Source: an uncultured Acidobacteriota bacterium (GTDB lineage Bacteria > Acidobacteriota > Terriglobia > UBA7540). From it: a stretch of DNA of 64,000 nucleotides. The notes beneath the pieces are model-generated. The model was not told the DNA's origin and did not search any database. It saw only the letters and a list, made by a program, of their open reading frames with translations. Made by a program: the position numbers and the translations under genes. Every line of letters starts with the position of its first letter. Within the stretch, counting starts at the first letter, position 1. Where the stretch lies: positions 1,760,001-1,824,000 of the forward strand of contig CAWDSK010000006.1 of NCBI GenBank assembly GCA_963804995.1, given 5' to 3'. Shown piece after piece: positions 602 to 59,925 of this stretch.

Positions 602-738
602 ACCCCCTCACCCGTCCCGCCCCGGCTGATGAAAACGCCAGTTGCGGTCCACCCTCTCCCCCAAAGGGGCGAGGGCTATATACTCAAATTAACTCTCCCC
701 TCGCCCCTTTGGGGGAGAGGGGCCTGGGGTGAGGGGGT
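602..738. repeat. REP family A doublet (CCCCTCACCC...CCCTCTCCCCCAAAGGGGCGAGGG / inverse)
   Basis: Two inverted half-elements between convergent genes; near-identical copies at ~32.8, 33.5, 35.5, 36.8, 43.3, 44.7, 45.2 and 57.8-58.1 kb. Confidence 0.85.
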
Positions 739-3055: not shown

Positions 3056-4968
3056 GTTGCGGTAGGGATACCGGTTACCCGGTACCCCCCGCACGGATCC
3101 GTACGTGCGCTGGTTAGCGCATACGGCTCTTATCTCGGATGTGTGGCGGCGAACCGTTGGGATGGCCAAGGATGCACAACGTGCGGAGCAGGCAACCAGC
3201 AGGCCGCAAGCTTCCCCAGTCGGTCCCAGTTGAGGCGGTGGCGTTGACTGCGTTGACGCAGTTGCGTTCGCCACAGTCGGGTCAACCGTTCCCGAAAGAT
3301 TCGCAGGCGGTCGAGGTTTCCCGGTACCGCGTGATAGTTGAAGTAGCCTTGCACGACCGACCGGAGCCATTTACCCGTATCCGCGATGGGATCGTGCCGA
3401 CGCTGCCGGAGTTGTTGCTTGAGTTCCTGCAACTTCCCCCGCAGGCGCTTGCTGATCGTCTTCCGCTTCACGGTAAATTGCCCCCTCCGGTTCTTCCCGC
3501 TGATATGCGTGAAGCCCAGAAAGTCGAACGTCTCCGGCTTACCTTCTCCTCTCCGTTTCCGGTAAAGTTCGGCAAACGGCCCGAACTCGATCCGGCGCGT
3601 TTTGTCAGGATGCAGTTCCAATCCAAACTTCCCCACCCGCTCCCGGAAATCCTCCAGAAAGCGGTCGGCTTCCGTCTGCGATTGGAATCCAAGGACCGTA
3701 TCGTCGGCATACCGCACCACGACCACGTCTCCCCGGGCGTGCTTCTTGCGCCACGCCTGCACCCACAGGTCAAAGACGTAGTGCAGATAGATATTCGCCA
3801 GCAGGGGCGAGACCACCGCCCCTTGTGGCGTACCCATCTCCGTCTCCGACCATTCGCCTTCCTCCCTCACCCCGGCTTTCAGCCATTTCTGGATGAGCCG
3901 GAGAATCCGGGGGTCGGCGACGCGATGCTGCACGAACTTGAGCATCCATTCGTGGGATATCGAATCGAAAAATCCACGAATGTCCGCGTCAAGAACGTAG
4001 TTCACGTGCTTCACCGTGAGCGCGTACGAGAGCGCGTCCAGCGCTTGATGCTGGCTGCATCCCGGTCGAAAGCCATACGAGAAGCCCAGAAAGTCTTCCT
4101 CGTAAATCGCCTTGAGGATGGTGACCACGGCCTGTTGGACGATCTTGTCCTCCAGTGCCGCAACCCCCAACGGACGTTGCCGCCCGTCGCCTTTCGGGAT
4201 ATACGCCCTTCGCGAGGGCTTCGCTCGGAATGCTCCGCGGTGGACCCGGCTGTGCAGATCGACGAGTCGACCTTCCAGCCCGCTTTCATACTCCTGCCAC
4301 GTCATGCCGTCTACTCCCGGTGCAGCTTTTCGCTTCAAGGCGTAAAAGCTTTCCCGCAGCAGATCGACCGTTAAGTGGTGGAGCAAGGCCGTGAACTTCA
4401 TCTCCCTGTGTTCCTTCGCGGCTTTCCGCACACCCGCGAGTCCCTGGGACACGCGTGCCCCGCTCTGTGTCGGGTGCGTGTTAGGCCAACGGGTGTTCTC
4501 CTTGATCAGCGGCCTTCCCTCCTCATTCTCCGCCAACGGCTTCCCGTCTTTGTTCAAATGATTCATCGGTACTGTTCCGCTGTCCGACTCCTCGAAAGCG
4601 TGCAGGCGGGCTGTACGGCCATCGCCTTTTCCCGCCGTCCGGCCACGATCTACGGCGGCCGGCGCCTCCGAGGTCTCCCGGTTCTCGTGCAGAAAGTGTC
4701 TAGGCGTGTCTGGGGTCTACGACTACGCAGGACTGTGCCGGAACTCGCGTTGGCGTCCCGGCCTCATGTTGCCTTCCGTTTAGTCTGAAAACGTCGGCGT
4801 CCTGATTGGACATTTTCGAAGCTCAATACCCAGCCCACCTATTCCCCTGTTTACGCTTCACCGTGCGCCTCACGACGCCCAGCGCAAAACTCGGGGCCGA
4901 GTGGATCGCTACTCCTTCCTCGTGAGAAATTTTCATTCTCTGCTTTCTGCCGGTTTATCCCGGCGCAC
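3056..4968 (-). mobile_element. Complete group II intron (~1.9 kb)
   Basis: 5' end GTGCGCCGGGATAAACCGGC at 4968; domain V GAGCCGTATGCGCTAACCAGCGCACGTACGGATC and domain VI ending CCCTACCGCAAC at 3056; internal RT ORF. Confidence 0.93.
3130..4566 (-). CDS. ltrA: Group II intron reverse transcriptase/maturase (no C-terminal endonuclease domain)
   Basis: APGVDG, RPLG..DK.VQ, GTPQG..SPLLANIYL, RYADD and FDFLGF motifs. Confidence 0.95.
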   Translation of the reverse strand: MNHLNKDGKPLAENEEGRPLIKENTRWPNTHPTQSGARVSQGLAGVRKAAKEHREMKFTALLHHLTVDLLRESFYALKRKAAPGVDGMTWQEYESGLEGRLVDLHSRVHRGAFRAKPSRRAYIPKGDGRQRPLGVAALEDKIVQQAVVTILKAIYEEDFLGFSYGFRPGCSQHQALDALSYALTVKHVNYVLDADIRGFFDSISHEWMLKFVQHRVADPRILRLIQKWLKAGVREEGEWSETEMGTPQGAVVSPLLANIYLHYVFDLWVQAWRKKHARGDVVVVRYADDTVLGFQSQTEADRFLEDFRERVGKFGLELHPDKTRRIEFGPFAELYRKRRGEGKPETFDFLGFTHISGKNRRGQFTVKRKTISKRLRGKLQELKQQLRQRRHDPIADTGKWLRSVVQGYFNYHAVPGNLDRLRIFRERLTRLWRTQLRQRSQRHRLNWDRLGKLAACWLPAPHVVHPWPSQRFAATHPR

Positions 4969-8434: not shown

Positions 8435-8467
8435 TTGGACTGCGGTAGCTGCTGCTACCGCACTCTA
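8435..8467. repeat. REP family C (TTGGACTGCGGTAGCTGCTGCTACCGC)
   Basis: Palindrome; other copies at 9249-9276 and 13316-13410, relative at 52647-52759. Confidence 0.7.
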
Positions 8468-8551
8468 AGGTGCTAACCCCTACCCCCCCATCGGTAACTA
8501 TCGAGCCCGAGGCATTTGACATATTTCCTTAAGCGCGGTATGGTTTTCCAT

Positions 8552-8818
8552 ATGAAGACGACTTTGATCATCCCGGACCCTATCTTCCGTGATTTGAAGC
8601 ATCGCGCCGCGGAGCGTGGCGAGACTCTTTCCGCGCTGGTCAGCGAATACCTGCGCCAGGGTCTGCGTGAAAGCCGCAAACTCCAGGGTCCCTTTCGCTT
8701 TCCCACCTTCAGCGCCGGTCTCCCCAAAGTAGACGTCGCCGATCGTCAGGCCCTGTATGACGTGCTCGATGCCGAGCGCGACGCGCGGCTCTATAGACGG
8801 GCCGGAAAGAAAGGCTGA
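8552..8818 (+). CDS. VapB-like ribbon-helix-helix antitoxin
   Basis: MKTTLIIPDPIFRDLKHRAAERGETLSALV RHH signature, 2 bp upstream of a PIN gene. Confidence 0.85.
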   Translation: MKTTLIIPDPIFRDLKHRAAERGETLSALVSEYLRQGLRESRKLQGPFRFPTFSAGLPKVDVADRQALYDVLDAERDARLYRRAGKKG

Positions 8819-8820
8819 GA

Positions 8821-9261
8821 GTGTTTGTTGTCGACACGAATCTCCTGATCTACGCGGCCATTCGGGAATTCCCCGAACACGATCAGGCCACCAAGCTCGT
8901 GGCAAAGTGGGGATCGGCGGCGGAGCCTTGGTGCATTACTTGGTCGATTGCCTACGAATTCCTGAGGGTGGTCACGCATCGGGCCGCCCTTCCCCGTCCC
9001 CTCACCTTCGCCGATGCCTGGAGTTTCATCGACAGCCTTCGCGGGTCGCCCTCCTTTGGAATCCTGGTGGAAACGGACCGCCACGCGGAAGTGGTTCGCG
9101 ACCTCACCCGTGAATACCCGCGCCTTTCCGGCAACCGTTTGCATGATCTTCACATCGCCGCGGTCATGAGAGAGCACGGCGTGCTGGAGATTCGCACCGC
9201 CGATACCGGTTTCCACCAATTCAAATTCCTGCGCGTCGTTAATCCGCTTGGACTGCGGTAG
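8821..9261 (+). CDS. vapC: VapC-family PIN toxin
   Basis: VDTNLLIYA...YEFLR...HDLHIAA...TAD PIN acidic motifs. Confidence 0.9.
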   Translation: MFVVDTNLLIYAAIREFPEHDQATKLVAKWGSAAEPWCITWSIAYEFLRVVTHRAALPRPLTFADAWSFIDSLRGSPSFGILVETDRHAEVVRDLTREYPRLSGNRLHDLHIAAVMREHGVLEIRTADTGFHQFKFLRVVNPLGLR

Positions 9262-9593
9262 CAGCAGCTACCGCTTTCCCATTTCTCGATCAAGTACGAT
9301 TCCCGTATGGGCCACAGCGGGCGGAGCGATGTCTCGGAGCGTCACGAGGAGCTCCTCTGGCGCGACCTGGACCCACACGCCAGCAAACGGCGGCAGCGGA
9401 GGCGGGACTGATGCCGCTTCTAATCGACTTCCAAGCTCTGGTCACTACGGACCGGCGCGACTTCCGGCGCGTTCGCCCCAAGCATATCCCCGCCTTCACT
9501 CTCCTGCCTTGAACATCACCCTTACTCGTACCGCAGCGCCACCGTGGTTACCTGCTCCTCCAACAGGCGCTGGAAAGTTGCGATTCACTGACT

Positions 9594-13315: not shown

Positions 13316-13410
13316 TTGGAGTGCGGTCGCAGCAGCTACCGCCTTCCGCCTTCTGTTCATACGGCGACGGTGCCAGGGAAAGCGGTAGCTGCTGCGACCG
13401 CACTCCAAAG
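13316..13410. repeat. REP family C doublet
   Basis: TTTGGAGTGCGGTCGCAGCAGCTACCGC ... GCGGTAGCTGCTGCGACCGCACTCCAAAG. Confidence 0.8.
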
Positions 13411-13424
13411 TGCCTGCGGCACAG

Positions 13425-14221: not shown

Positions 14222-14291
14222 ATTGCTGCCACCAGAGGCGCTCGCTGCCTTCTCCTCTGCGGCCATTTCTGTATTTCCTGACTCCTAACTT

Positions 14292-14678
14292 CTAGCTTCT
14301 AGCTCCTGGCCTCGGACGGTAGGTAGCTGAGGTCGTATCCGTTTCCCAAATCTTTACGGCCAGAATCTCAAGGGCGCGATCCGCCACTTGCGGCCCCAAC
14401 TCGTCGTAAAAATACTTGGCAATGTTCTCCGCTGACGGGTTCAGCTTGTCAAACGGTTCCACATCGTTCAGGAAGCGATGATCCAGGCGCTCCACCAGCA
14501 CTTTGATCGCCTTGCGCAAATCCACGAAATCCAATAACAATCCCGCGGAATTAAGCTGCTCGCCGCCCACGGTCACCTGCACTTTGTAATTGTGCCCGTG
14601 CACGTTCTCGCACTTGCCCTTGTACTCGCGCAGAGCATGCCCCGCCGCGAAAGTGTATTCCACTGAGACTTCGAACAT
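14292..14678 (-). CDS. queD: 6-carboxytetrahydropterin synthase
   Basis: FAAGH, CENVHGHNY, LDHRFLN, SAENIA and WET motifs. Confidence 0.95.
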   Translation of the reverse strand: MFEVSVEYTFAAGHALREYKGKCENVHGHNYKVQVTVGGEQLNSAGLLLDFVDLRKAIKVLVERLDHRFLNDVEPFDKLNPSAENIAKYFYDELGPQVADRALEILAVKIWETDTTSATYRPRPGARS

Positions 14679-14689
14679 TAGAACCTCTG

Positions 14690-14984
14690 GAGAAGGAGTT
14701 AGGAGCGAGAAGCGAGAAGCTAGGAGTCAGGAGCTAGGAGGCCCTCGAACGCACGCAGGATCTATCCATGCCCAAAAATCAGCTTGTCCCCTGAACCCCG
14801 GATAAACTCTGACTTACGACCGCCGACTTCTAACTCCTAACTTCTAGCTCCTGTCTTCCGACTCCTAGCTCCTAACTCCTACCTTCTAGCTTCTGCCTTC
14901 TCCTTCTAGCTTCTAGCTCCTGTCTTCCGACTCCTAGCTTCTAACTCCTGGCTCCTAACTTCTAGCTCCTAGCTTCTCGCTTTC
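14690..14984. repeat. Degenerate heptamer tandem arrays in inverted arrangement
   Basis: GAGCTAG/GAAGCGA units at 14690-14740 facing CTAGCTC/CTAACTC/CTAGCTT units at 14820-14984. Confidence 0.85.
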
Positions 14985-16922
14985 TCATTCTCGCATGAAG
15001 GCCTTCACGTCTTCCAGCCGATTCGTCTTCTGGTAGGGTGGCAGGCTTTCGAGGAAGACTCGCCCATACGGCTTGCGCATCATGCGGTGATCCAGGATGA
15101 CCAGCACGCCGCGGTCCGTCTCACTGCGGATCAGCCTGCCGAAGCCCTGCTTGAGCGTGATGACGGCCTGCGGCACCTGATAATCGCTGAAGGCGTTGCC
15201 TCCCTCATCGTTGATATGGCGGATGCGCGCGGCGGTAATCGGGTCCGACGGCACGGCGAAGGGCAGGCGATCGATCAGCACCGCGCTTAACTGTTCACCT
15301 TGCACATCCACACCCTGCCAGAACGAACTGGTGCCGAAGAGGACCGCATGGGGAGTCGAGCGGAAGCGGTCCAGCAACTCCGTGCGCGGCATCGAGCCCT
15401 GCAGCAGCAGGGGATAGCGCACCCGCGGCCGCACGCGCTCATATACGTCGCGCATTTGCACGTAGGAAGTGAACAGCACGAAGGCGCGCCCGCGCGTGGC
15501 CTTTAACAGTTGCACCACTTCCTCCGCCGCCAGACGCGCGAAATCCGGCTCGCGCGGATCGGGCAAATGCAGCGGCGTGTAGAGCAGCGCCTGGTGCGCG
15601 TAATCGAAGTGCGAGTCGAGGATTCTTTCCCGCGCATTCTGCACACCCAGGCGCCGCTTAAGGAAATCGAAGGTGCCGCCCACGGCCAGCGTCGCGGAGG
15701 TCAGGATCACGGTCTCCACCTGCTCGAACAAACGCTCGCGCAGCAGGGCGGAAACGTCAATGGGCGTCGCCTCCAGAAACACGCCGCGCCCGCGCCGCTC
15801 CCACCAATACACCATATTGCGCTCGTTCGATTCCATCACCACCTCGAACGCCCCGCGCAATTCCTTGGCGCGCCGTGTCAGGTTGTGGATCTCCTCGGGT
15901 TGGTCCGGCAGGCGGCTCAGTTCGGTTTCGAGAAGCAGCAGCGCATTCGTCAGGCCCGTGTAGGCCCCGCGATGGACGTCGAGGAAACTATCGCGATTGT
16001 CGAAGTTGGTGCGGCCCTGGTTGGCGGGAAAAAGCTCGAAAAAATTATCGGCGCGGCGGCGCAGCTCACCCACCGCGGAGAGGGGCTCCGGCGCCTTGAG
16101 ACCCTTCTGCCGCAGCGTCACTTCCGTGTCGCGCGCCAGCTCCTCCACCCGGTAATTGCTGACCTGCAAGCCGAAGTACTGCGTGGCCACGTCTTCCATC
16201 TCGTGCGCTTCATCGAAAACCAGTGCCGCGTAATCGGGAAGCAGCGTGGCGTAATCCATCTGGCGCAAAGCGAGGTCGGCAAAAAACAGATGATGGTTCA
16301 CAATCAGCAAATCGGATTCCGCGGCGCGCTGGTGCATGAGCGTGATGAAACAACGCTCGAATTGCGCGCACTTCTGGCCGGTGCAGGTCTCGCGACGGGC
16401 GTCCACCTGCTTCCAAAGTTCGCTCGAATCCGGCAGCCAACCCAGTTCCGCGCGGTCGCCCGTTTCCGTGCGCTCCTCCCACTTGCGCAGCTTCGGGTAC
16501 TGCTCGACTTCTTCCATGCCGTTCAGCACCGGCTGCTTCTCGATGTCATAAAGCTTTTGCCGGCACAGATAATTCTGGCGGCCCTTCATCAGCGTGACGC
16601 GCAGTTGAGGGAAAAGCTTTTTTAGAAACGGCACGTCCTTGTAGAAAAGCTGCTCCTGCAGATTCTTCGTGCCCGTGGAAATCACGGCGCGCGCCCCACT
16701 GCGCATCAGCGGCACCAGATACGCCAGCGTCTTGCCCGTGCCCGTCCCCGCCTCCACAATCAGGTGCTGGCGGCTCTCAAGCGCCGACTCGACGCTCTCC
16801 GCCATTTCGAGCTGGCCGGGACGGTACTCGTAATTCGGATGGTGACGAGCCAGCCATCCCCCCGGCGCAAAAACCTTCTCGAGGGGGAGTTTTTCAGACA
16901 ACTTTTTATCCGTAATCGACAT
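14985..16922 (-). CDS. DinG/YoaA-family Fe-S DNA helicase
   Basis: EAGTGTGKT, KGRQNYLC, Fe-S Cys residues, FDEAH, TSATL and QGFGRLIRS motifs. Confidence 0.93.
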   Translation of the reverse strand: MSITDKKLSEKLPLEKVFAPGGWLARHHPNYEYRPGQLEMAESVESALESRQHLIVEAGTGTGKTLAYLVPLMRSGARAVISTGTKNLQEQLFYKDVPFLKKLFPQLRVTLMKGRQNYLCRQKLYDIEKQPVLNGMEEVEQYPKLRKWEERTETGDRAELGWLPDSSELWKQVDARRETCTGQKCAQFERCFITLMHQRAAESDLLIVNHHLFFADLALRQMDYATLLPDYAALVFDEAHEMEDVATQYFGLQVSNYRVEELARDTEVTLRQKGLKAPEPLSAVGELRRRADNFFELFPANQGRTNFDNRDSFLDVHRGAYTGLTNALLLLETELSRLPDQPEEIHNLTRRAKELRGAFEVVMESNERNMVYWWERRGRGVFLEATPIDVSALLRERLFEQVETVILTSATLAVGGTFDFLKRRLGVQNARERILDSHFDYAHQALLYTPLHLPDPREPDFARLAAEEVVQLLKATRGRAFVLFTSYVQMRDVYERVRPRVRYPLLLQGSMPRTELLDRFRSTPHAVLFGTSSFWQGVDVQGEQLSAVLIDRLPFAVPSDPITAARIRHINDEGGNAFSDYQVPQAVITLKQGFGRLIRSETDRGVLVILDHRMMRKPYGRVFLESLPPYQKTNRLEDVKAFMRE

Positions 16923-29255: not shown

Positions 29256-31039
29256 GTGAATATCAGCGGTCAATTTTATCACAAGGCAAAAATTGTGACT
29301 AGAAAGCCCGAGACATTCTTCGAGGAAATGAAGCGCTATGTCGGCTTCACTGAAGAAGATGCTCGCCTCTTGCACTCTCTCGGTGCAGGCATGGATCCCT
29401 ACTTGCCGGTCATGTCGGAGCGCTTCTACAACCAGATCACGCAACACCCTGAGGCGGACAAGGTCTTCACCGGCGGCCAGGAACAGATTGACCGGTTGAA
29501 GCACACGTTGCAAATCTGGGGGCGGCGTCTGTTTGAGGGGCCTTTCGACGAGGATTATGCTGCCGAGCGTTATAAGATCGGCGTTCGCCACGTACTCATC
29601 GGCTTGCCCCAGCGCTATATGATCAGCGCCATGGGAGTGGTGCGGGTGTGCCTCCAGGAAAGCCTGAATGAAGTTTTGCGCTCTGAACCCGAGCGCTTGG
29701 ATGCCACCCGGCTCGCACTGGACAAGATCCTGAACCTTGATCTGAACATGATGTGCGAGTCTTATTTCCAGGGAAGTATCCGCCACCTGAGTGAGCTGAA
29801 CCGAAAACTGGAACGCGCCAACTTCGAACTGGCGGAGTTGAGCAACGTCAAGACGGAGTTTCTGGCAACCACTTCGCACGAACTCCGCACCCCCCTCAAT
29901 TCCATACTGGGCTTTACACGGCTGATTCTCGATGGCCTGTGTGAGAACCGCGAGGAAGAGCGGGAGTTGCTGCGGGATGTCCTTTCCAGCGCCCAGCACC
30001 TCCTTTCCATCGTCAACGACCTGTTGGACGTGGCTAAGATCGAGGCGGGCAAACTCCGCTTGTCGGTGGAGAAGGTGGACCTCCAATCCATCATCCGAGA
30101 GGCCAAAGCCGTGGTGGGTGTACAGGCGGCGGCCAAGCACCTGACAATCGTCGACGAGACGGAATCGTTGCCTCTGCCTCTGGTGTCCGCCGATGGAGCC
30201 CGCGTCAAGCAGGTCCTGATCAACCTCATGAGCAACTCCGTCAAGTTCACCGACAAGGGCTGGATTACGCTGCGCGGGCGCTCTTTCCCGGATCGCGGCT
30301 TTGTGGAGCTCGAGCTTCAGGACACCGGGGTCGGAATTCCCCCGGCGATGCAGCGGCATCTCTTTGAGAAGTTCCGCCAGGTTGACAGCTCCTTCACTCG
30401 CCCGCAAGGTGGCAGCGGCCTGGGGCTGGCCATTTGCCGCAGCCTGGTGCAAATGATGGGGGGGCGTATCAAGCTCTGGAGCGCGGGCGTCGGCTGTGGA
30501 ACCACGGTGACTTTCTCACTTCCTGTGCGCCACGAGGTCGAAGATGCCGTGCACGTGAAAGGTAAGGAAGCCCTGGCCGCGGCCGGGAACGAAAACGGAG
30601 TGCGCGTTCTGGTGGTTGATAACGATCCGGAATTTCGCCGCTACCTCAAAACGCTGCTGACCAAGCGCGGTTACTACGTCCTGGGCGCAGCCACCGCAGA
30701 CGACGCGCTGGATGCTTCGCGCCGCTTCCGGCCGCAATTGCTGATCGTCGACTTGGCCCTGCCGCAGCGCCCCGGCGCGGAGTTGGCGGACGGCGCCGAT
30801 GTCATCTCCCAACTGCAGACGGGCGCCTTGGTTCGCGAAATCTATTGCTTGATGGTCACCGGCTATGACCCCATGGAGGCGCGCGAGCGGCTGTCACTGC
30901 TGCAAGTGACGCCGGAAATCTGGCAGAAGCCCCTCGAGGGCGGGAAATTCCTGGCGCGGCTGGAGGAGATTTTGCAAGGCTCCGGCTCGGCTCGAACCCC
31001 GGAGTCCGGCGCAAAGGCTGGCGGAGGAGCGGTAATGCA

Positions 31040-31043
<4 letters not shown>
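29256..31043 (+). CDS. Globin-coupled hybrid histidine kinase (protoglobin-HisKA-HATPase-REC)
   Basis: [13 protein letters not shown]...[10 protein letters not shown] sensor globin; SHELRTPL; G boxes; C-terminal receiver. Confidence 0.88.
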
Positions 31044-31125
<82 letters not shown>

Positions 31126-31179
31126 TAGCGCTTGCTGCGAGTCCCGGCAGAGTCGGGATAGGCACTAACCAATTTCATC

Positions 31180-31575: not shown

Positions 31576-31683
31576 CGAGACGGACGGTTTTTGGACCTTT
31601 GTGTCACGACGGGTAGCGTAAGTGGTCGGCGAATTTTGGCGTGTCCCAGACCCTGGGTTTTTGGTGGGACCTCGCGCGCTATG

Positions 31684-32013
31684 GTGGTCTCTGTGCGCTC
31701 TGTGGTGAATCCGTGTTTATGAAAAAATTCACCACAGAGGACACAGAGGTCACGGAGAGCAGCCGGAGAAAAAACGTGGGTCGATAACCAAGGAAGCGTG
31801 ATCTCCACCCGCGCCATCAGAAGGGCTCTGCTCTGTGGTCTCTGTGCGCTCTGTGGTGAATCCGTGTTTATGAAAAAATTCACCACAGAGGACACAGAGG
31901 TCACGGAGAGCAGCCGGAGAAAAAACGTGGGTCGATAACCAAGGAAGCGCAATCTCCACCCGCGCCATCAGAAGCGTTCTGCTCTGTGGTCTCTGTGCGC
32001 TCTGTAGTGAATC
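31684..32013. repeat. 151-bp tandem repeat (2.2 copies) built on family B palindromes
   Basis: Units start at 31684, 31835 and 31986. Confidence 0.88.
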
Positions 32014-32033
32014 TTATCTTCGCGCCCCCCGCA

Positions 32034-32699: not shown

Positions 32700-33015
32700 G
32701 AGTAATTATCCTCCGGCAAAGCCGGAGGCTTTACGGTGGCTGGACCCTCAAAGGGGCCTGACCGCCACCGTCGGGAAAAGACCCCTCACCCGACCTCGTC
32801 CCTCGGCCACCCTCTCCCCAAGGGAGAGGGAAAGGGTTTCACCACGCGGTAGCGCCCCCAGAGAAACCCCCGCCCTCTCCCCGGGGAGAGGGTGGACCGC
32901 CGCCGGCGTTTTCATCAGCCGGGGCGGGACGGGTGAGGGGTCTTTTCCCGGCCAACGAACCGTTACTCCAGAAGATGTCAAACTCTTACTGCCTCACCGG
33001 CAGAGCCGGGGGATC
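32700..33015. mobile_element. Non-autonomous IS200/IS605-like shell containing a family A REP doublet (32773-32949)
   Basis: Subterminal hairpins CCTCCGGC-AAA-GCCGGAGG and CCGGC-AGA-GCCGG; no tnpA between them. Confidence 0.55.
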
Positions 33016-33448: not shown

Positions 33449-33661
33449 CTAGTGTGGTGTCCCGTGTTAGAGTTGACAATGGGTAGAACCCCCTCACCCG
33501 TCTGGCATCGGCTGATGAGAACGCCTCGGCCAGCCACCCTCTCCCCCAAAGGGGCGAGGGCAAGAAAATTAACTCTCCCCTCGCCCCCTTGGGGGAGAGG
33601 GGCTGGGGGGGGTGAGGGGGTCGGACAGCCTTGTCAAATAGTAACCGGGACACCACACTAG
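33449..33661. mobile_element. CTAG-bounded MITE type 1 with family A REP doublet
   Basis: TIR CTAGTGTGGTGTCCCG..TTGACAA at both ends. Confidence 0.8.
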
Positions 33662-35476: not shown

Positions 35477-35712
35477 CTAGTGTGGTGTCCCGGTTAATAT
35501 TTGACAAGGCTGTCCGACCCCCTCACCCCCCAGCCCCTCTCCCCCAAAGGGGCGAGGGGAGAGTTAATTCTCTTGCCCTCGCCCCTTTGGGGGAGAGGGT
35601 GGCTGGCCGAGGCGTTCTCATCAGCCGAGGCCAGAAGGGGGCCCCACGTTCTGCTTGTCGTGGGGGTGAGGGGGTTCTACCCCTTGTCAAATCTAACTCG
35701 GGACACTACCTG
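35477..35712. mobile_element. CTAG-bounded MITE type 1 (inverted copy of 33449-33661)
   Basis: Same TIRs and REP doublet, with a short extra insert. Confidence 0.78.
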
Positions 35713-36793: not shown

Positions 36794-37035
36794 CTAGTGT
36801 CATGTAACAGAAGTTCGCTGATTATTGGAAAACCCCCTCACCCCCCAGCCCCTCTCCCCCAAAGGGGCGAGGGGAGAGTTAATTTTCTTGCCCTCGCCCC
36901 TTTGGGGGAGAGGGTGGCTGGCCGAGGCGTTCTCATCAGCCGAGGCCTGACGGGTGAGGGGGTTCTACCCCTTGTCAAATCTAACTCGGGACACCACACC
37001 AGCTTAATCAACGGACTTCTGTTACAGGACACTAG
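36794..37035. mobile_element. CTAG-bounded MITE type 2 enclosing a family A doublet and a type 1 end
   Basis: TIR CTAGTGTCATGTAACAGAAGTTCGCTGATTA / TAATCAACGGACTTCTGTTACAGGACACTAG. Confidence 0.8.
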
Positions 37036-43286: not shown

Positions 43287-43512
43287 CTAGTGTCGTGAGT
43301 CAGAAATTCGTTGATGATTCGAGAACCCCCTCACCCCCGGCCCCCTCCCCCAAAGGGGCGAGGGGGGAGTTTATTTGAGTTTACTGCCCTCGCCCCCTTG
43401 GGGAGAGGGTGGCCCGCCGCCAGCGTTTTCATCAGCCGGGGCGGGACGGGTGAGGGGGTCGCCCTGCAACCCAGTGAGACTTTGTCAGCGAACTTCTGAC
43501 TCAGGACACTAG
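43287..43512. mobile_element. CTAG-bounded MITE type 2 with family A REP doublet
   Basis: TIR CTAGTGTCGTGAGTCAGAAATTCGTTGA / TCAGCGAACTTCTGACTCAGGACACTAG. Confidence 0.8.
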
Positions 43513-44681: not shown

Positions 44682-44762
44682 TAGCCCTCGCCCCCTTGGG
44701 GGAGAGGGTGGCCCGCCGCCGGCGTTTTCATCAGCCGGGGCGGGACGGGTGAGGGGGTCAAA
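44682..44762. repeat. Family A half-element, left flank of the DUF559 gene
   Basis: 77/81 identical to the reverse complement of 45233-45313. Confidence 0.92.
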
Positions 44763-44788
44763 CGCCTGCGCCAGTACTTCGCCGCAGC

Positions 44789-45205
44789 TCACGACTCATC
44801 GGCAAAGGCATCGGGTAGCGACCGGACTATTTTCAGTACGTTCTCCACGAACAATTCGGGCGCCTTAAGAACCATTCCGTTTGGAAATCGTGTCACAACG
44901 TATCCCAGGTCTTTGAGTAGCGCGTCCCGGCGTGTGTCCCGTTTGGCCTGACTCGGCTGCCCGTGCACGCTGCCGTCCAGTTCCACAACCAGTCGCCGCC
45001 GCGGGCAGCAAAAATCGACGATGTATTGGCCGACGGGGTGCTGCCGACGAAATCTAACACCCTTGAATCTGAGAGTACGTAATAAATACCAGGCGATTAT
45101 TTCTGACTCAGTCTTGTCTTGGCGAAGGGTGCGCGCCCTGGCAATTGGTTCTGCGCCACGTGCAAGTGAACGTCGCTTGCGGCGGGGCGGGGCGCGTTTG
45201 GTCAT
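44789..45205 (-). CDS. DUF559 / Vsr-like endonuclease domain protein
   Basis: ARTLRQ..TESE, FRRQHPVGQYIVDF, VVELDGSVH and RD..L..LGY.V.RF.N; AAGGAG RBS. Confidence 0.9.
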   Translation of the reverse strand: MTKRAPPRRKRRSLARGAEPIARARTLRQDKTESEIIAWYLLRTLRFKGVRFRRQHPVGQYIVDFCCPRRRLVVELDGSVHGQPSQAKRDTRRDALLKDLGYVVTRFPNGMVLKAPELFVENVLKIVRSLPDAFADES

Positions 45206-45232
45206 GTTCACCGTCTCCTTCTCCTTCACAAT

Positions 45233-45313
45233 TTTGACCCCCTCACCCGTCCCGCCCCGGCTGGTGAAAACGCCGGTTGCGGTCCACCCTCTCCCCCAAG
45301 GGGGCGAGGGCTA
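45233..45313. repeat. Family A half-element, right flank of the DUF559 gene
   Basis: Inverse partner of 44682-44762. Confidence 0.92.
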
Positions 45314-45415
45314 GGATCCTTCCGTTTTGAGACTCGGCCATGGCTAAATTGGGCACCAATATACTTGACTCATCCACTGGGTTTTGGTATAGTTTTGCTT
45401 GTGAGGAGCGAAACC

Positions 45416-46384
45416 ATGCGCGAACCCCGTACCCTGCAAGAAGCCATTATCTATTTTTCGAACCCTGACAATTCCCGCGCCTACCTTGTGGCGAAGCGCT
45501 GGCCCCAGGGCGTCATCTGCCCAACCTGCGGGTCGGAAAAGGTCAAATTCAATCCGGCTCGCGGCGTCTGGCAATGCCCCCGCCATCATGCCCGGCGGCA
45601 ATTCTCCGTCAAGGTGGGCACCCTGTTTGAGGATAGCGCCATCGGCCTGGATAAGTGGCTCACGGCGGTGTGGATGCTCACCAACTGCAAGAACGGTATC
45701 AGTTCCTATGAAGTAGCCCGCGACCTGGGGGTCACGCAAAAGACCGCCTGGTTCATGCTGCACCGCATCCGGCTGGCCTTGCAGGACGAGGGCGGCGGCA
45801 AGTTGGGAGGAGAAGTTGAGGTTGACGAAACCTTTATCGGCGGCCTCTCCCGCAACATGCACATCGGTAAGCGGCGGGAGAAAATCCAGGGCACGGGCGG
45901 GCGCGATAAAATTGCGGTCCTGGGAATTCTGAAACGGCGAGGCAAAGTTCGCACTTCGGTCGTTCCCGATGTGACCCTCAAAACTCTTCGCGGCAGCGTT
46001 GTCGAAAACGTTTCGGCGGGCTCGCAGGTTTTCACGGACGCTTGGATTGGTTACCACGGGTTGGATTCCGAATATGTTCATAGCGTTATTGACCATGCCC
46101 AAGCCTATGCCGTGGAAAACGTCCACACCAACGGCCTCGAAAACTACTGGAGCCTTTTGCAGCGCACCCTCCAAGGGACCTACGTTAGCGTCGAACCGTT
46201 CCATTTGTTTCGTTACCTTGACGAGCAAGCCTTCCGTTACAACCAGCGCGAAGGACTTGATGATCGTGGCCGCTTCGATGCGGCGGTTTCCAGGATCATC
46301 GGTAAGCGCCTCACCTGGAATCGCCTCGCCGGAAAGACGCAAGCTCGTCCAACCTGTTCTAACGCACAAGGCAAGGCAACGTGA
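45416..46384 (+). CDS. IS1595-family transposase
   Basis: RWPQGVICPTCG zinc ribbon, VEVDETFIGG, FTD, HTNGLENYWS and YLDEQAFRYN motifs. Confidence 0.95.
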   Translation: MREPRTLQEAIIYFSNPDNSRAYLVAKRWPQGVICPTCGSEKVKFNPARGVWQCPRHHARRQFSVKVGTLFEDSAIGLDKWLTAVWMLTNCKNGISSYEVARDLGVTQKTAWFMLHRIRLALQDEGGGKLGGEVEVDETFIGGLSRNMHIGKRREKIQGTGGRDKIAVLGILKRRGKVRTSVVPDVTLKTLRGSVVENVSAGSQVFTDAWIGYHGLDSEYVHSVIDHAQAYAVENVHTNGLENYWSLLQRTLQGTYVSVEPFHLFRYLDEQAFRYNQREGLDDRGRFDAAVSRIIGKRLTWNRLAGKTQARPTCSNAQGKAT

Positions 46385-46401
46385 GCGCCGGGGGAAGCGG
46401 G

Positions 46402-46548
46402 TCAAGCCTTCGCCCGCTTCTTCCGCTGGCGTTGCTTCTTCCACTCCGCTTTCCTTCGCTGTAACTCCTCCCGCGGGACGGAGAAAATCTTGCTGATTGC
46501 AGCGTCGAAATTCTGGAATTCTGAGGTTTTTATCCCCTTCTGGCTCAT
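46402..46548 (-). CDS. Small basic passenger protein inside IS1595
   Basis: MSQKGIKTSEFQNFDAAISKIFSVPREELQRRKAEWKKQRQRKKRAKA, convergent to the transposase. Confidence 0.5.
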   Translation of the reverse strand: MSQKGIKTSEFQNFDAAISKIFSVPREELQRRKAEWKKQRQRKKRAKA

Positions 46549-46726
46549 AAACATTAAATGCCTCAGTCCGTGACAATACCTTATCCACTCAACATCGTAC
46601 ACCTCCAACCCGTTCATCTCGCACCTTTCGAATGGATGAGTCAAGTAAGTTGGTGCCCTAAATTGGACAGGCTTGGCTTAGAAAAGGCGCGGCAAGGTTC
46701 ACTGGAATGGGATCGTACGTGAACGG

Positions 46727-52871: not shown

Positions 52872-54461
52872 TCAATGCAACTGCCCAAGCTGATAATTGA
52901 GGACCGCGTTTTGGGTCTCGTAATCGTACTTGGCGCTGGTGTTGGCGATTTGCGCCTGGGTGAGGTTCAATTGCGCCTGCGAAAGTTCCACAATCGAACT
53001 GAGCCCCAGATTGTAGCGCCCTTGTGCGAGTTGGAACGCCAGGGTGGCCTGCTCCAATAATTGAGCGGTGACGTCAAGCCGCTGGAACGCCGTGCCGGCA
53101 TCCAGCCACGCGGTGCGCACGTCGCGGGCGATGCGGTCCACCAAGTCGCGTGTCTCCTGGTCCGCCGCCTTGGCGCGCAGGTTGGCCTCCTGATGGCGGG
53201 CGGAAAAGAGGAATCCATTAAAGATCGGGATATTCACGTTGATGCCCGCCGCTGCGTAGCGGTCGGTAAGCGGAGCTTGATAAGCCGGCGTAAGGCCAGC
53301 CGCACCCGCCGCGCTGATGGTGGGCATCCACAAATCGCGTTCGGCGCGGGCATAACGCAGGGCGGCCTCTTCGCTGAAGCGGGCGCTCTGTAGGTCCGGC
53401 CGATTCTGCAGAGCCTGCGCGACGAGGTCCGTGGGGTCAGGGGGAGGCGCCGAGGGCATGGGTTCATCCACGAGGTTAAAGGGCTGAGGGGCGGCAAGCC
53501 CGAGGGCAGTGGCCAGATCCGCATAAGCCGCTTTTTCGTCGTTCTGCGCCTGGACCAGCAGCAGTTGCGCCTGCGCCAAATTTACCTTGGCGAAGCTGAC
53601 GTCCAGAAGAGACTTCAGCTTGTTCTTTTCGAGCGTGGTCACCTGCTCTGCCAGAATCTGGCGCGCCTTGACGGTCTCCTCCGCCACCTTGAGGACAGCC
53701 TCCGCGCGCAAGACGCCGAAGTAGGAGCGATTGACGCCCAGCAGCACATCCTGTTCAGTTTGCTTGGCGCTCAGGGAAGCGGCCTGCGCTCCCAGCCGGG
53801 CTGAGCCCACCAGGTTGGAAGTGCGCCCGAAGTCCGTAATGAGCTGGTTGACCATGAGACCGTTCGAATAACGGTTTAGGACGTTTGGGTCGTTCAGGAA
53901 GCCCGCGGCGATGCGGCTATTGGACATGGCCCCGGCCCCCGTCAAGCTGCCGTTGGCGGTCGGCAAGTAGGCGGATTTTGCTTCACGCGTCACTTGCTCA
54001 GCCGCCTGCGCATTGAAGGTGGCGGCCTGCAACACGGGATGATTCCGCAACGCCATCGCCTCCGCATCTTTCAAGGAAAGGTTGGGTGTTTGGGGTGGCG
54101 CAGCCAGAGCTGGGGCCATCACGAGCATCCCCAAAGTCACGGAGAAGACACGGAGAAAAAACTGTAGATCAACAGAATAGGGAATCGTAATTCCTAACCG
54201 CTTAACTCGAAGCGCTTTTCTCTGTGGTCTCTGTGCGCTCTGTGGTGAGTCTTTTCTCCGCGGCACGAGAAGGAAGGATTTCACCACAGAGGCCACAGAG
54301 GTCACAGAGAAGACACGGAGAAAAAACTGTAGATCAACAGAATAGGGAACCGTAATTCCTAACCGCTTAACTCGAAGCGCTTTTCTCTGTGGTCTCTGTG
54401 CTCTCTGTGGTGAGTCTTTTCTCTGCGGCACGAGATGAATTAATGTGAGAACATTTCTCAT
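52872..54461 (-). CDS. TolC-family outer membrane efflux protein with repeat-derived N-terminal insert
   Basis: LSLKDAEAMAL, AYLPT, IPIFNG and RYNLGLSSIVEL motifs; start overlaps the RND stop. Confidence 0.9.
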   Translation of the reverse strand: MRNVLTLIHLVPQRKDSPQRAQRPQRKALRVKRLGITVPYSVDLQFFLRVFSVTSVASVVKSFLLVPRRKDSPQSAQRPQRKALRVKRLGITIPYSVDLQFFLRVFSVTLGMLVMAPALAAPPQTPNLSLKDAEAMALRNHPVLQAATFNAQAAEQVTREAKSAYLPTANGSLTGAGAMSNSRIAAGFLNDPNVLNRYSNGLMVNQLITDFGRTSNLVGSARLGAQAASLSAKQTEQDVLLGVNRSYFGVLRAEAVLKVAEETVKARQILAEQVTTLEKNKLKSLLDVSFAKVNLAQAQLLLVQAQNDEKAAYADLATALGLAAPQPFNLVDEPMPSAPPPDPTDLVAQALQNRPDLQSARFSEEAALRYARAERDLWMPTISAAGAAGLTPAYQAPLTDRYAAAGINVNIPIFNGFLFSARHQEANLRAKAADQETRDLVDRIARDVRTAWLDAGTAFQRLDVTAQLLEQATLAFQLAQGRYNLGLSSIVELSQAQLNLTQAQIANTSAKYDYETQNAVLNYQLGQLH

Positions 54462-57650: not shown

Positions 57651-57835
57651 AGGACTTCCACCCTCACCTTTTGAGGAGTAGCTTTCAGTTTTCAGCTGTC
57701 AGCTATCAGCTATCAGCTTTCAGCTCTCAGCTATCAGCTCTTTGTTGGACCGCCCTGAAGCGGGGGCCTAACCCCGCCCAGGCCAGCGGCCCACCAGCGT
57801 TAACCAATGTCCACGAAGTCCCTGGACACTACCCT

Positions 57836-58150
57836 AGCCCTCTCCGAGGGGAGAGGGTGGACCGCGGCCAGCGCTTTCACCAACTGGCGCGGGACGGGTG
57901 AGGGGTCACTTCGTCAGCTTCGCCCCACCTGAAGCATCACCCGGCCACGCAGCGCCAACCCGTTCGGAATTCGCAACAATCCCTACGGAGGGAAACCGCG
58001 TGTAATCGTCTCTTGCCGCGTCTTTCCGTCTCCGAATCGGCCGTGAGCGAATACGGCTCAATTCCTCGCACGGAATAACCCCTCACCCGTCGCGCTTCCC
58101 GATCAAGTGCATCGGGACAGCGCGCCACCCTCTCCCCTCGGAGAGGGCTA
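57836..58150 (-). pseudogene. Decayed DUF559 remnant flanked by family A half-elements
   Basis: Between repeats 57836-57907 and 58078-58150 the minus strand reads RSRPIRRRKDAARDDY..G / LLRIPNGLAL, resembling HGQPSQAKRDTRRDAL..GYVVTRFPNGMVL. Confidence 0.6.
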
Positions 58151-58221
58151 TGAGTTCAGACTTACGTCAGCCCTGGGTTTCGCCTATCCCGACTCTGTCG
58201 GGACTCGCACAAAGCGCTCGC

Positions 58222-58392
58222 TGCCTACTGCTTTCTGCCTACCGCCTACTGCTTTCCGCCTTCTGCCATCCGCCTTCCGCCTTCTGCCATCCGCCTTCTG
58301 CCTACCGCTTACTGCTTTCCGCCTTCTGCCTTCCGCCTTCTGCCTTCTGCTTTCTGCCTTCCGCCTTCCGCCTTCTGCTTTCCCCCCTACTG
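58222..58392. repeat. Long heptamer array (CTGCCTA/CCGCCTT/CTGCTTT)
   Basis: More than 20 degenerate tandem 7-mers. Confidence 0.9.
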
Positions 58393-59925
58393 CCCCACCC
58401 CGTGGTACTGCAGCATCTCAACAACCTGCGGACGCACTTCCTGGCCCGGCTTAAGACCGCTGCGGTCGCTCACAACCACCTCATCGCCCTCCGCGAGACC
58501 GGAAACAACTTCCGCATCGGTCGAGGTTTCAAGTCCCACCGTTACGACTCGAAGCTCAACCTTGCCGGCGGAATTCACCACATCCACGGTGGTCTGGCTG
58601 CCCTCACGGCTCACCGCCTCCAAAGGCACCACCAGCACGTTATCTTTCGCTTCCAGGGTTAGCGTGGTTTCCGCATACATTCCCGGCATCAAGAGCCGGT
58701 CGGAGTTGGGAACGTCGACCTCGGTGTGCATGGTGCGCGTGCCCTCCTGCACGTCCATGGAAAAACGGGCCACTTTGCCGGGAAAAGTACGGTTGAGAGC
58801 CGGCACCCGGACCTGGACGGCGTCTCCCACCCGGATGTAGCGCACCGAGGACTCGGGAACCGGGATAACCAATCGATACAAATCATCCTGGGATAATTTG
58901 ACCAGGGGCATGGCCTGGGTGCTGGAGCTCGTGCCCGCCTGCATCAAGGTTCCCAGGTTGGCGTAACGCTCGGTCACCACACCTGCGAACGGCGCGGTGA
59001 TGCGCGCGTAGTCGAACAGCGCCTGGTCGTGAACCAGTCTGGACCTATTCACCAGGAGCTGGCTTTCGGCGGCCGCCAGAGCTGACTCACCCGCGTCCAC
59101 CTGCGACGCTGCCGCCAGGTCTTTGCCCTGGGCATCGTCAACTTCCTGCTGCGCCACCAGGCCGGGCTGGCTTTCGAAGACGCTATTCAAGCGGGTAAAT
59201 TCGAGGTGAAGCACCCTGTACTGCGCCTGATACCGTTTCAGTTGGTGCTGGGCGCGGGAAACTTCGTCCGTGGCATTCTTGATGGAGGCCTGGTCCGTTT
59301 GCAATTGCGCCTCGAGCTCCGGTATTTCCAGCGTGGCCATCAGTTGACCCGCTTGCACGCGGCTGCCGTAATCGACGTACAACTTTTTGACGAACCCTGA
59401 CTCTTTCGCGTAAACGTCGATTTCCTGAAAGGGAACGAGCTCCGAGGAAAGCGTAATCTGCCGCTGCAAAGATTTCCGGGCTACTTTCGTCACCCCCACC
59501 GTGAGGACTGACTGGGACTCGCCCTTGGCTCGAACTTTTGTGCAGGAGGGGAGAAACACAAGTAAGATGGCGGCGAGGGCGACGGCTGCCCTGCGGCTAA
59601 AACTCCAATCAAGATTCGCTAAGCGCCAACTTCTTCTAAGCCTGCAAAAAATGGATTCACCACAGAGTACACAGAGACCACAGAGAAAAGAACTTATGTT
59701 TGCAGGGCCAGGGATAACGCTTCCTTCTTTTGAGACCCGCAGTTCTTTCTCCACATTCTCTCTGTGTCCTCCGTGTCCTCTGTGGTGAAATCTTTTTTGG
59801 GTTGCGGCCCGGTCGCGCCAGGTTAAATCTTTTCCGCCCACTGCGGCCAGAGAGAAAAGCCTTCCGGCAGTCCGTGGGAATCCGGCGCTACCAGGGAATC
59901 TCATTGTCTTAGTCATCGTTTCCAC
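58387..59925 (-). CDS. RND membrane fusion protein with repeat-derived N-terminal insert
   Basis: YAKESGFV, V.AGQ, ITAPFAGVVT and LMPGMYA; lipobox-like FLPSC; true start uncertain. Confidence 0.9.
   Translation of the reverse strand: METMTKTMRFPGSAGFPRTAGRLFSLAAVGGKDLTWRDRAATQKRFHHRGHGGHRENVEKELRVSKEGSVIPGPANISSFLCGLCVLCGESIFCRLRRSWRLANLDWSFSRRAAVALAAILLVFLPSCTKVRAKGESQSVLTVGVTKVARKSLQRQITLSSELVPFQEIDVYAKESGFVKKLYVDYGSRVQAGQLMATLEIPELEAQLQTDQASIKNATDEVSRAQHQLKRYQAQYRVLHLEFTRLNSVFESQPGLVAQQEVDDAQGKDLAAASQVDAGESALAAAESQLLVNRSRLVHDQALFDYARITAPFAGVVTERYANLGTLMQAGTSSSTQAMPLVKLSQDDLYRLVIPVPESSVRYIRVGDAVQVRVPALNRTFPGKVARFSMDVQEGTRTMHTEVDVPNSDRLLMPGMYAETTLTLEAKDNVLVVPLEAVSREGSQTTVDVVNSAGKVELRVVTVGLETSTDAEVVSGLAEGDEVVVSDRSGLKPGQEVRPQVVEMLQYHGVGQ

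Follow-up and report, generated by a model that had tools for sequence, protein, structure and literature searches.

In the window, i.e., the whole 64,000-nt stretch of DNA analysed from the genome of an uncultured Acidobacteriota bacterium, a short gene on the minus strand (44789..45205) encodes a 138-aa nuclease of the Vsr fold, which carries the DUF559 domain (PF04480, 115 bits in Pfam) and belongs to the lineage termed clade A below. Translation from ATG gives the product of 138 aa, and a GTG at 45229 offers an alternative start for a protein of 146 aa. As the initial annotation had described, the gene lies between 81-bp inverted repeats with their heads inward, and the two arms match at 77 of 81 positions. 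The downstream arm (44682..44762, plus strand) is a long-form type A repeat, the third block of which faces the 3′ end of the gene; it comprises a hairpin formed by CCCTCGCCC and GGGAGAGGG, an internal hairpin of 38 nt, and the third block GGGTGAGGG(GG). The upstream arm (45233..45313, minus strand) is the inverted copy, with its head towards the gene start. None of the named DDE-type end classes that were looked for, i.e., M1, M2, or CTGGAG-type ends, is present at 44682-45313. The position of this cassette is lineage-specific: among 27 homologous loci, the deacetylase gene is followed by the cassette at one, that of this genome, and in the relative G191 the same next gene comes soon after the deacetylase gene, without a cassette. 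No empty site could be defined for the cassette at base level, the nearest relatives within the genus being 70-74% identical in the neighbouring protein. An IS1595-family element (45352..46657, plus strand), flanked by the 8-bp target duplication CTAAATTG, lies 38 bp from the upstream repeat and is independent of the cassette.

The predicted model of the window protein (pLDDT 86.8) resembles most closely the structure 3HRL (Z 15.4, rmsd 1.6, 94 aa), followed by the catalytic domain of I-Bth0305I (3R3P; Z 13.1, rmsd 3.0, 97 aa) and Vsr (1CW0; Z 11.2, rmsd 2.4, 101 aa), and by sequence 3HRL is the sole structure match (E 4e-17). The earlier description of the protein as Vsr-like thus holds by both domain score and predicted structure. 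Residues E35, W39, Q55, D64, F65, G78, and H81 do not vary among 43 sequences, and conservation reaches 90% or more at E75, D77, and D90. This pattern is consistent with an active site of the EDxHD type (PMC3239194). A residue-by-residue correspondence to the active site of Vsr is one that we infer rather than read from a superposition. Over 13 unsaturated pairs, dN/dS of the window gene ranges from 0.10 to 0.18, and the modelled fold and the predicted active site are intact and under purifying selection. DUF559 has been grouped with Vsr (PMC3424549), and YcjD of E. coli appears as a Vsr-related putative nuclease in the list of PMC1189080. Vsr, I-Bth0305I, NGO0050 from N. gonorrhoeae (3HRL), and YcjD share with the window protein its fold and conserved residues of the E-D-x-H-D type. 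In contrast to Vsr and the EDxHD homing endonucleases, however, the gene described here has no adjacent cytosine methyltransferase, intron, or intein, Pfam finds no NUMOD domain in the free-standing 138-aa gene, and repeats bracket it.

In the assembly of 7.55 Mb there are 554 copies of the repeat head, CCCCTCACCC, compared with 21-27 copies expected from Markov models. Of these heads, 456 passed a filter for real units, 268 belonging to type A (5-C head) and 188 to type B (4-C head). Heads-out doublets lacking a gene number 85 genome-wide; both halves are of the same subtype in 82, and type-A doublets pair a long half with a short half in 68 of 75 cases. The C-C mismatch in the stem, which the initial annotation had considered as a possible site of action of the nuclease, characterizes type A alone (203 of 243 units, versus 4 of 201 in type B). 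A third variant, type V (ACCACCCC..CCCCTCCT..AGGAGGGG), is represented by 141 repeats in the genome, including 45 doublets, none of them in the window.

Both cassette arms fit, block for block, the consensus of the BoxC/PIT/TMECO elements, given for TMECO as CCCTCNCCC N3-6 GGGNGAGGG N3 GGGNGAGGG (Holder et al. 2015, PMC4666352), i.e., a C-rich stem, a G-rich stem, and a second G-rich block. The common blocks are CCCTCNCCC, GGGNGAGGG, and GGGTGAGGG, with an optional stem mismatch, and a further likeness consists in inverted doublets of unlike halves, type A with type B in E. coli and long with short here. The difference lies in the second loop, which comprises 38 nt with a hairpin of its own in both cassette arms; genome-wide, no copy has the strict 3-nt second loop and 67 copies have one of 2-8 nt. 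The repeat is a long-loop variant of BoxC/PIT/TMECO and not a REP linked to RAYT. At one triad position of head, tail, and tail, 393 of 444 units are C-C-G, 42 are T-T-A, and 9 are mixed, although four of five inspected mixed cases of the T-C-G kind are mis-pairings made by the search pattern. The T-T-A form is a single inherited variant and therefore counts as one covariation event. In a comparison that did not presuppose a third block, 55 flanks are better fitted by a mirror image of the purine stem and 13 by a direct repeat, with 45 ties and 89 symmetric cases; counted by distinct block, the ratio is 25 versus 6, with 23 ties. The covariation of the third block and its mirror symmetry agree with a conserved fold capable of forming a triplex. 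ViennaRNA predicts two hairpins only for the repeat, with almost no pairing in the head. No stable triplex was found in duplex DNA or in vivo by Holder et al. (2015, PMC4666352), and earlier work cited there ascribes neither promoter nor terminator activity to PIT elements. Rfam has no family matching the repeat, and its sole match in the window, at 4713-4933 on the minus strand, is to group II intron domains D1-D4 (RF02005, 173 bits).

Doublets in the heads-out arrangement are present at all six positions at which the initial annotation had placed them (602, 32773, 33488, 35517, 36832, and 43325). The tail that it had called fixed is not, because the doublet at 32773 (32781..32941, heads 32782/32940) belongs to type B, with a 4-C head and a tail ending in GGAGAGGG. 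The other five are of type A. The doublet at 602..738 (heads 604/736) joins a long and a short half, and no MITE end was found in the flanks inspected. The remaining four (33488, 35517, 36832, and 43325) reside inside CTAG-ended MITE-like elements: one at 33449..33661 (heads 33490/33619) in an M1 element with CTAGTGTGGTGTCCCG ends, one at 35477..35710 (heads 35519/35673) in an M1 element with a degenerate right end, one at 36794..37002 (heads 36834/36961) in a chimera with an M2-like left and an M1 right end, and one at 43287..43512 (heads 43327/43457) in an M2 MITE, the ends of which are the terminal repeats of an intact insertion sequence. Among peat contigs, many differing flanks are found at position 43512. 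No RNA data set was listed among the sequencing runs that contain the sequence, and all shares were below 0.1. Several other repeats occur in the window as well, i.e., direct and inverted arrays of 7-nt units of the GCAGTAG/CTTCTAG type (14247-14998, 31023-31163, 57680-57735, and 58201-58414), a second dispersed family of the CACCACAGAGGACACAGAG type with inverted pairs and tandem units of 151/165 bp (31680-32020, 54136-54435, and 59647-59798), and a third hairpin family of the TTGGACTGCGGTAGC..GCTACCGC type (8435-9286 and 13316-13413).

Across the genome, 65 of 70 paired CTAG-ended elements enclose the repeats of this family, and heads abut MITE ends in 146 of 268 cases for type A, in 1 of 188 for type B, and for 9 of 141 type-V units. 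The intact insertion sequence with M2 terminal repeats, which we take to be IS630-like, is present in two copies (G000, this genome; C2:723858-725021 and C3:1066081-1067244), and M2 terminal repeats bound 16 repeat-carrying MITEs. For the M1 ends, which are commoner than M2 (47 elements), no autonomous partner was found in this genome; other copies of M1 elements carry a GTAG-type hairpin, and some elements are M1/M2 chimeras. Another DDE insertion sequence of 1,830 bp (Pfam DDE_5, 27.3 bits) has seven copies (G000 C1:327296-329125 and six more) with CTGGAGTTTCTACATTT ends; its insertion sites are hairpin repeats of various kinds, and the duplications are long, about 18-21 bp by eye. Its ends also bound non-autonomous elements, DUF559 cassettes among them: 12 of 29 clade-A cassettes and none of 28 clade-B cassettes lie inside both ends. 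Three near-identical deletion derivatives of the cassette in this genome had been candidates for movement driven by DUF559; this was dropped, as two of them lie within both ends of the DDE element and the third is associated with one end. Tail-to-tail joints, considered as possible circles of the cassette, proved to be ordinary doublets of other organisms (contigs at 85% likeness) and were likewise rejected. Wherever marks of movement remain, i.e., terminal repeats and target duplications, it was DDE insertion sequences that made the movement. A further transposase gene (374-aa frame) is repeatedly found inside type-A doublets in MITEs (G000 C2:95206, C2:410225, C5:237165, and C5:647177), which suggests an insertion sequence targeting the tail of the repeat.

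PF04480 has four matches in the genome. Three are stand-alone genes, all bracketed heads-in by the repeat, whereas the remaining match forms the end of a long ORF and lacks such bracketing. A clade-B paralog of the window gene lies at C6:1390729. Among 6,166 crudely called gene-like ORFs, eight have heads-in repeats within 150 nt and three of these eight are the stand-alone DUF559 genes, so bracketing concerns only 5 of the other 6,163 ORFs. Looked at from the repeats, 16 filtered heads-in pairs less than 700 bp apart comprise two with an intact DUF559 gene and nine with decayed remnants of one (11 of 16), the third intact gene having been missed by the pair filter as one of its repeats is truncated. 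Each of the nine remnants matches best the clade of its own repeat type; their E-values were computed against a set of nine sequences, and the weakest, 0.001, belongs to a second heads-in pair in the window (57905/58079), overlooked in the earlier note. This type B pair (57838..58147) encloses a probable decayed clade-B fragment, which was recovered by tblastn (E 0.001 against the same set) and by blastn (E 6e-5) and is 70-72% identical to two stronger DUF559 remnants. Despite the 141 type-V repeats, a clade-V DUF559 gene is absent from this assembly, which is 92% complete, so repeats can be maintained or increase in number where no gene of their own is seen. The PF04480 genome search gave no match in the control with E. 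coli though ycjD is annotated as DUF559, and a 'no match' in this search may therefore be a miss. Y1_Tnp (PF01797) has 14 matches in the genome, the window DUF559 gene not being among them. No head of type A or type B lies within 600 bp of any of the 14, and one of them has a single V-type core.

Pairing of DUF559 with such repeats is not confined to this genome. Scanning of 175 loci, which were the top-scoring hits per search rather than a random draw and carry phylum labels from the titles of the seed loci, gave 174 with a hit, 167 of them distinct and 152 full-length with 150 nt or more of sequence on either side. With a generic stem-plus-mirror detector that scores orientation towards the gene, a gene-facing element of the triplex type is found on at least one side of 114 of the 152 loci, from five main phyla, and on both sides of 65, whereas the opposite orientation on both sides occurs at 15; 38 loci have no element. 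In controls, the detector responds in 7 of 428 distant windows and in none of 912 shuffles, and the enrichment of the repeat beside DUF559 genes that the initial annotation had asked about is therefore evident. Loci with a gene-facing element amount to 54 of 58 in this genus and 60 of 94 outside it, i.e., 24 of 35 in Chloroflexota, 14 of 23 in Planctomycetota, 13 of 20 in other Acidobacteriota, 5 of 11 in Bacillota, 2 of 2 in Nitrospirota, 2 of 2 in other groups, and 0 of 1 in E. coli. In a phylum sample of 151 genomes, DUF559 is present in 6 of 11 genomes with at least nine hairpin cores versus 9 of 140 others (Fisher p 1.2e-4, with related genomes not being independent); five of the 11 repeat-rich genomes, G062 among them, have no DUF559. 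Without G062 and G000, the frequency in repeat-rich genomes is 5 of 9 (p 3.6e-4). At some loci the domain is part of a larger reading frame. At L125 (Chloroflexota) the reading frame of methionine synthase includes DUF559, and a repeat lies on either side of this domain; DUF559 is also found in frame within an HsdM methylase (L045), an agmatine/peptidyl-arginine deiminase (L008), and a FAD-binding protein with a Hint fragment (L053).

Proteobacteria were not among the sampled genomes, and E. coli was examined from an annotated collection only. In strain K-12, TMECO no. 9 lies 167 bp downstream of ycjD, a gene annotated as DUF559, and faces away from it; by the stem-plus-mirror detector ycjD is not flanked heads-in. 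In its region (L042:1705-2330), a degenerate repeat tail overlaps the stop codon, and the gene is closely preceded by a long perfect palindrome. The ycjD region is covered to at least 80% in 3,378 of 5,426 E. coli genomes.

Within the genus, three nuclease clades go with three repeat variants, even inside one genome. Clade A (29 loci) has 5-C heads and mostly tails of the CCCTCTCCCCC-NN-GGGGGCGAGGG type, clade B (28 loci) has mostly 4-C heads, with one 5-C and three 3-C exceptions, and clade V, which includes one locus from Planctomycetota and two from other Acidobacteriota, carries ACCACCCC/CCCCTCCT. On the protein tree of 62 genus loci, 61 of which were flank-typed from DNA alone, the flank type changes four times, the minimum being three, versus at least 19 changes when flank types are shuffled and at least 13 when they are shuffled within genomes; more than one flank type is present in 12 of 21 genomes. 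The co-phylogeny of repeat and nuclease that had been proposed as a check is thus borne out, although gene and flanks are physically linked and concordance is therefore partly expected from co-inheritance. Clade-A genes have a median dS of 1.5 and a median dN/dS of 0.15, and the cores of their flanks are near-identical. The copy number of the repeat also follows the presence of the gene, another check that had been proposed: the 13 genomes that possess a clade-A gene have 14-274 type-A tails each and the 12 that lack one have 0-12, a comparison in which partial hits were left unclassed, assemblies are 58-98% complete, and the threshold was chosen after seeing the data. Presence of clade A changes seven times on a host tree of 23 genomes, and four of four supported independent pairs on this tree agree (p 0.125). 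Three of four further genomes fit, G191 having 66 tails and clade A and G189 and G190 having 0 and 3 tails and only clade B. The exception is G192, which possesses a clade-A gene, yet one type-A tail. G019, G010, and G004 are rich in type-V repeats and have no V gene among the hits classed.

The closest working model is Ssn, a small GIY-YIG nuclease for single-stranded DNA, the gene of which is flanked by its own hairpin repeat NTS/SRM and the product of which cuts that repeat as single-stranded DNA (Chenal et al. 2025, PMC11893778). Both systems have the gene of a small single-domain nuclease with its own hairpin repeat on both sides, hundreds of dispersed copies of the repeat, and many pairs. 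Flanking rates are similar, 71% on one side and 42% on both for Ssn according to the same article and 75% and 43% for DUF559 here. The folds differ, GIY-YIG there and Vsr-like PD-(D/E)xK here, and the repeat described here has a third, mirror-image purine block. DUF559 is mentioned nowhere in the main text of PMC11893778. To RAYT/REPIN systems the likeness consists in a low-copy enzyme gene flanked by repeats that are also found as gene-less inverted doublets (PMC5581495); the difference is that here there is no HUH/Y1 domain and the repeats do not flank the Y1 genes of the genome. Lacking both GIY-YIG and HUH domains, the DUF559 system is a member of neither group and is Ssn-like by its layout. 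For BoxC/TMECO, the text of PMC4666352, in the part consulted, names no partner enzyme and reports no link to transposons, whereas the repeat described here is linked to a nuclease gene and to MITEs. In the titles and abstracts of the literature searched, which largely leaves subscription journals outside, no link was found between DUF559/YcjD and BoxC, triplex, or REP-like repeats.

In our opinion, DUF559 is probably the cognate, repeat-specific nuclease of this family, Ssn-like and with a different fold. This explanation builds on the layout of the cassette, the enrichment across phyla, the predicted intact fold under selection, the clade-matched repeats, and the covariation of the third block. 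Since a separate repeat variant accompanies each nuclease lineage, recognition and cutting of that repeat by the protein are likely, and the precedent of Ssn together with the comparable flanking rates is the reason why a cognate nuclease is preferred. The gene for DUF559 would be inherited as a unit with the inverted pair of BoxC/triplex-type repeats around it; the protein, likely a nuclease specific for both sequence and structure, would bind its own variant of the repeat as a folded single strand and might nick in or beside the folded repeat, as Ssn nucleases do. Repair or recombination at such nicks could keep the repeats homogeneous and seed new copies, and in this genome DDE insertion sequences have then amplified, as their passengers, several cassettes and roughly one half of the type-A repeats. 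The initial annotation had regarded DUF559 as the nuclease that recognizes or mobilizes the repeat. Recognition gains good support from enrichment, clade-specific variants, and tracking of copy number, but for mobilization the marks that remain are those of DDE elements. Its proposal of a RAYT/REPIN-like system is not upheld, given a BoxC/TMECO-like repeat and unflanked Y1 genes, and Ssn is the closer model.

Other explanations account for part of these observations. The repeats might be cis elements, such as RNA hairpins, terminators, or operator-like sites, or mere co-inherited ends, with DUF559 acting elsewhere and DDE transposases alone having made the copy numbers. Derivation as MITEs or passengers of insertion sequences does account for the 65 of 70 paired CTAG-ended elements, the M2 end being the terminal repeat of an intact element, for the 12 clade-A cassettes and two of three deletion derivatives inside both ends of the seven-copy 1,830-bp element, and the abundance of type-V repeats without their gene points the same way. 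However, the window cassette and nearly all type-B and type-V repeats have no such ends, the pairing is found in five phyla, in which the repeat variants differ, and the reported lack of promoter and terminator activity of PIT elements (work cited by Holder 2015, PMC4666352) argues against a regulatory role, so that we consider this explanation rather unlikely. It is quite unlikely that DUF559 itself moves the cassette and the gene-less doublets as a selfish element, be it RAYT/REPIN-like or homing-like, by nicking resident repeats followed by gene conversion. Such mobility would agree with the cassette behind the deacetylase gene at a single locus, the seven changes of clade-A presence on the host tree, the nine decayed cassettes dispersed in the genome, the in-frame cassette in methionine synthase of Chloroflexota, and a homing endonuclease as the closest characterized structural relative. 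Yet a lone Vsr-type domain is not known to have strand-transfer chemistry, neither an empty site nor a target duplication or circle junction is defined for free repeats, and the recent multi-copy cassettes bear the ends of another insertion sequence.

An origin of the repeats as REPs that owe their spread to a RAYT/Y1 transposase, DUF559 being a bystander, is very improbable: the genome does have the 14 Y1_Tnp matches, but RAYT was rejected as driver since these genes are not flanked by type A or B heads, the only neighbour being the single V-type core, and sequence logos show no GTAG/CGTC-type end on the repeat. With about 550 heads per genome and five unrelated ORFs bracketed too, an abundant repeat might happen to flank one gene, but chance is refuted by the bracketing of all three stand-alone DUF559 genes, the nine remnants, and the 65 of 152 loci elsewhere, and its probability is negligible. 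A bolder extension of the cognate-nuclease explanation is possible but doubtful. According to it, DUF559/YcjD proteins, with their Vsr fold, would make up a second family of nucleases guided by repeats, and a widespread one, reading a folded intrastrand triplex plus hairpin in single-stranded DNA with 'dialects' for each clade, and the missing maker and spreader of BoxC/triplex repeats, including the in-frame cassettes.

The association described here connects two long-standing orphans. These are the triplex repeat BoxC/PIT, which was already known in the 1990s and is associated with genome instability, and DUF559/YcjD, for which a structure (3HRL) and no role had been available. The link between nuclease and repeat can be tested in E. 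coli K-12, where ycjD lies beside a TMECO element, and with the three natural pairs of one genus. If it is true, DUF559 would represent a second fold for site-specific nucleases of single-stranded DNA after Ssn, with many natural specificities, and might possibly read a DNA triplex.
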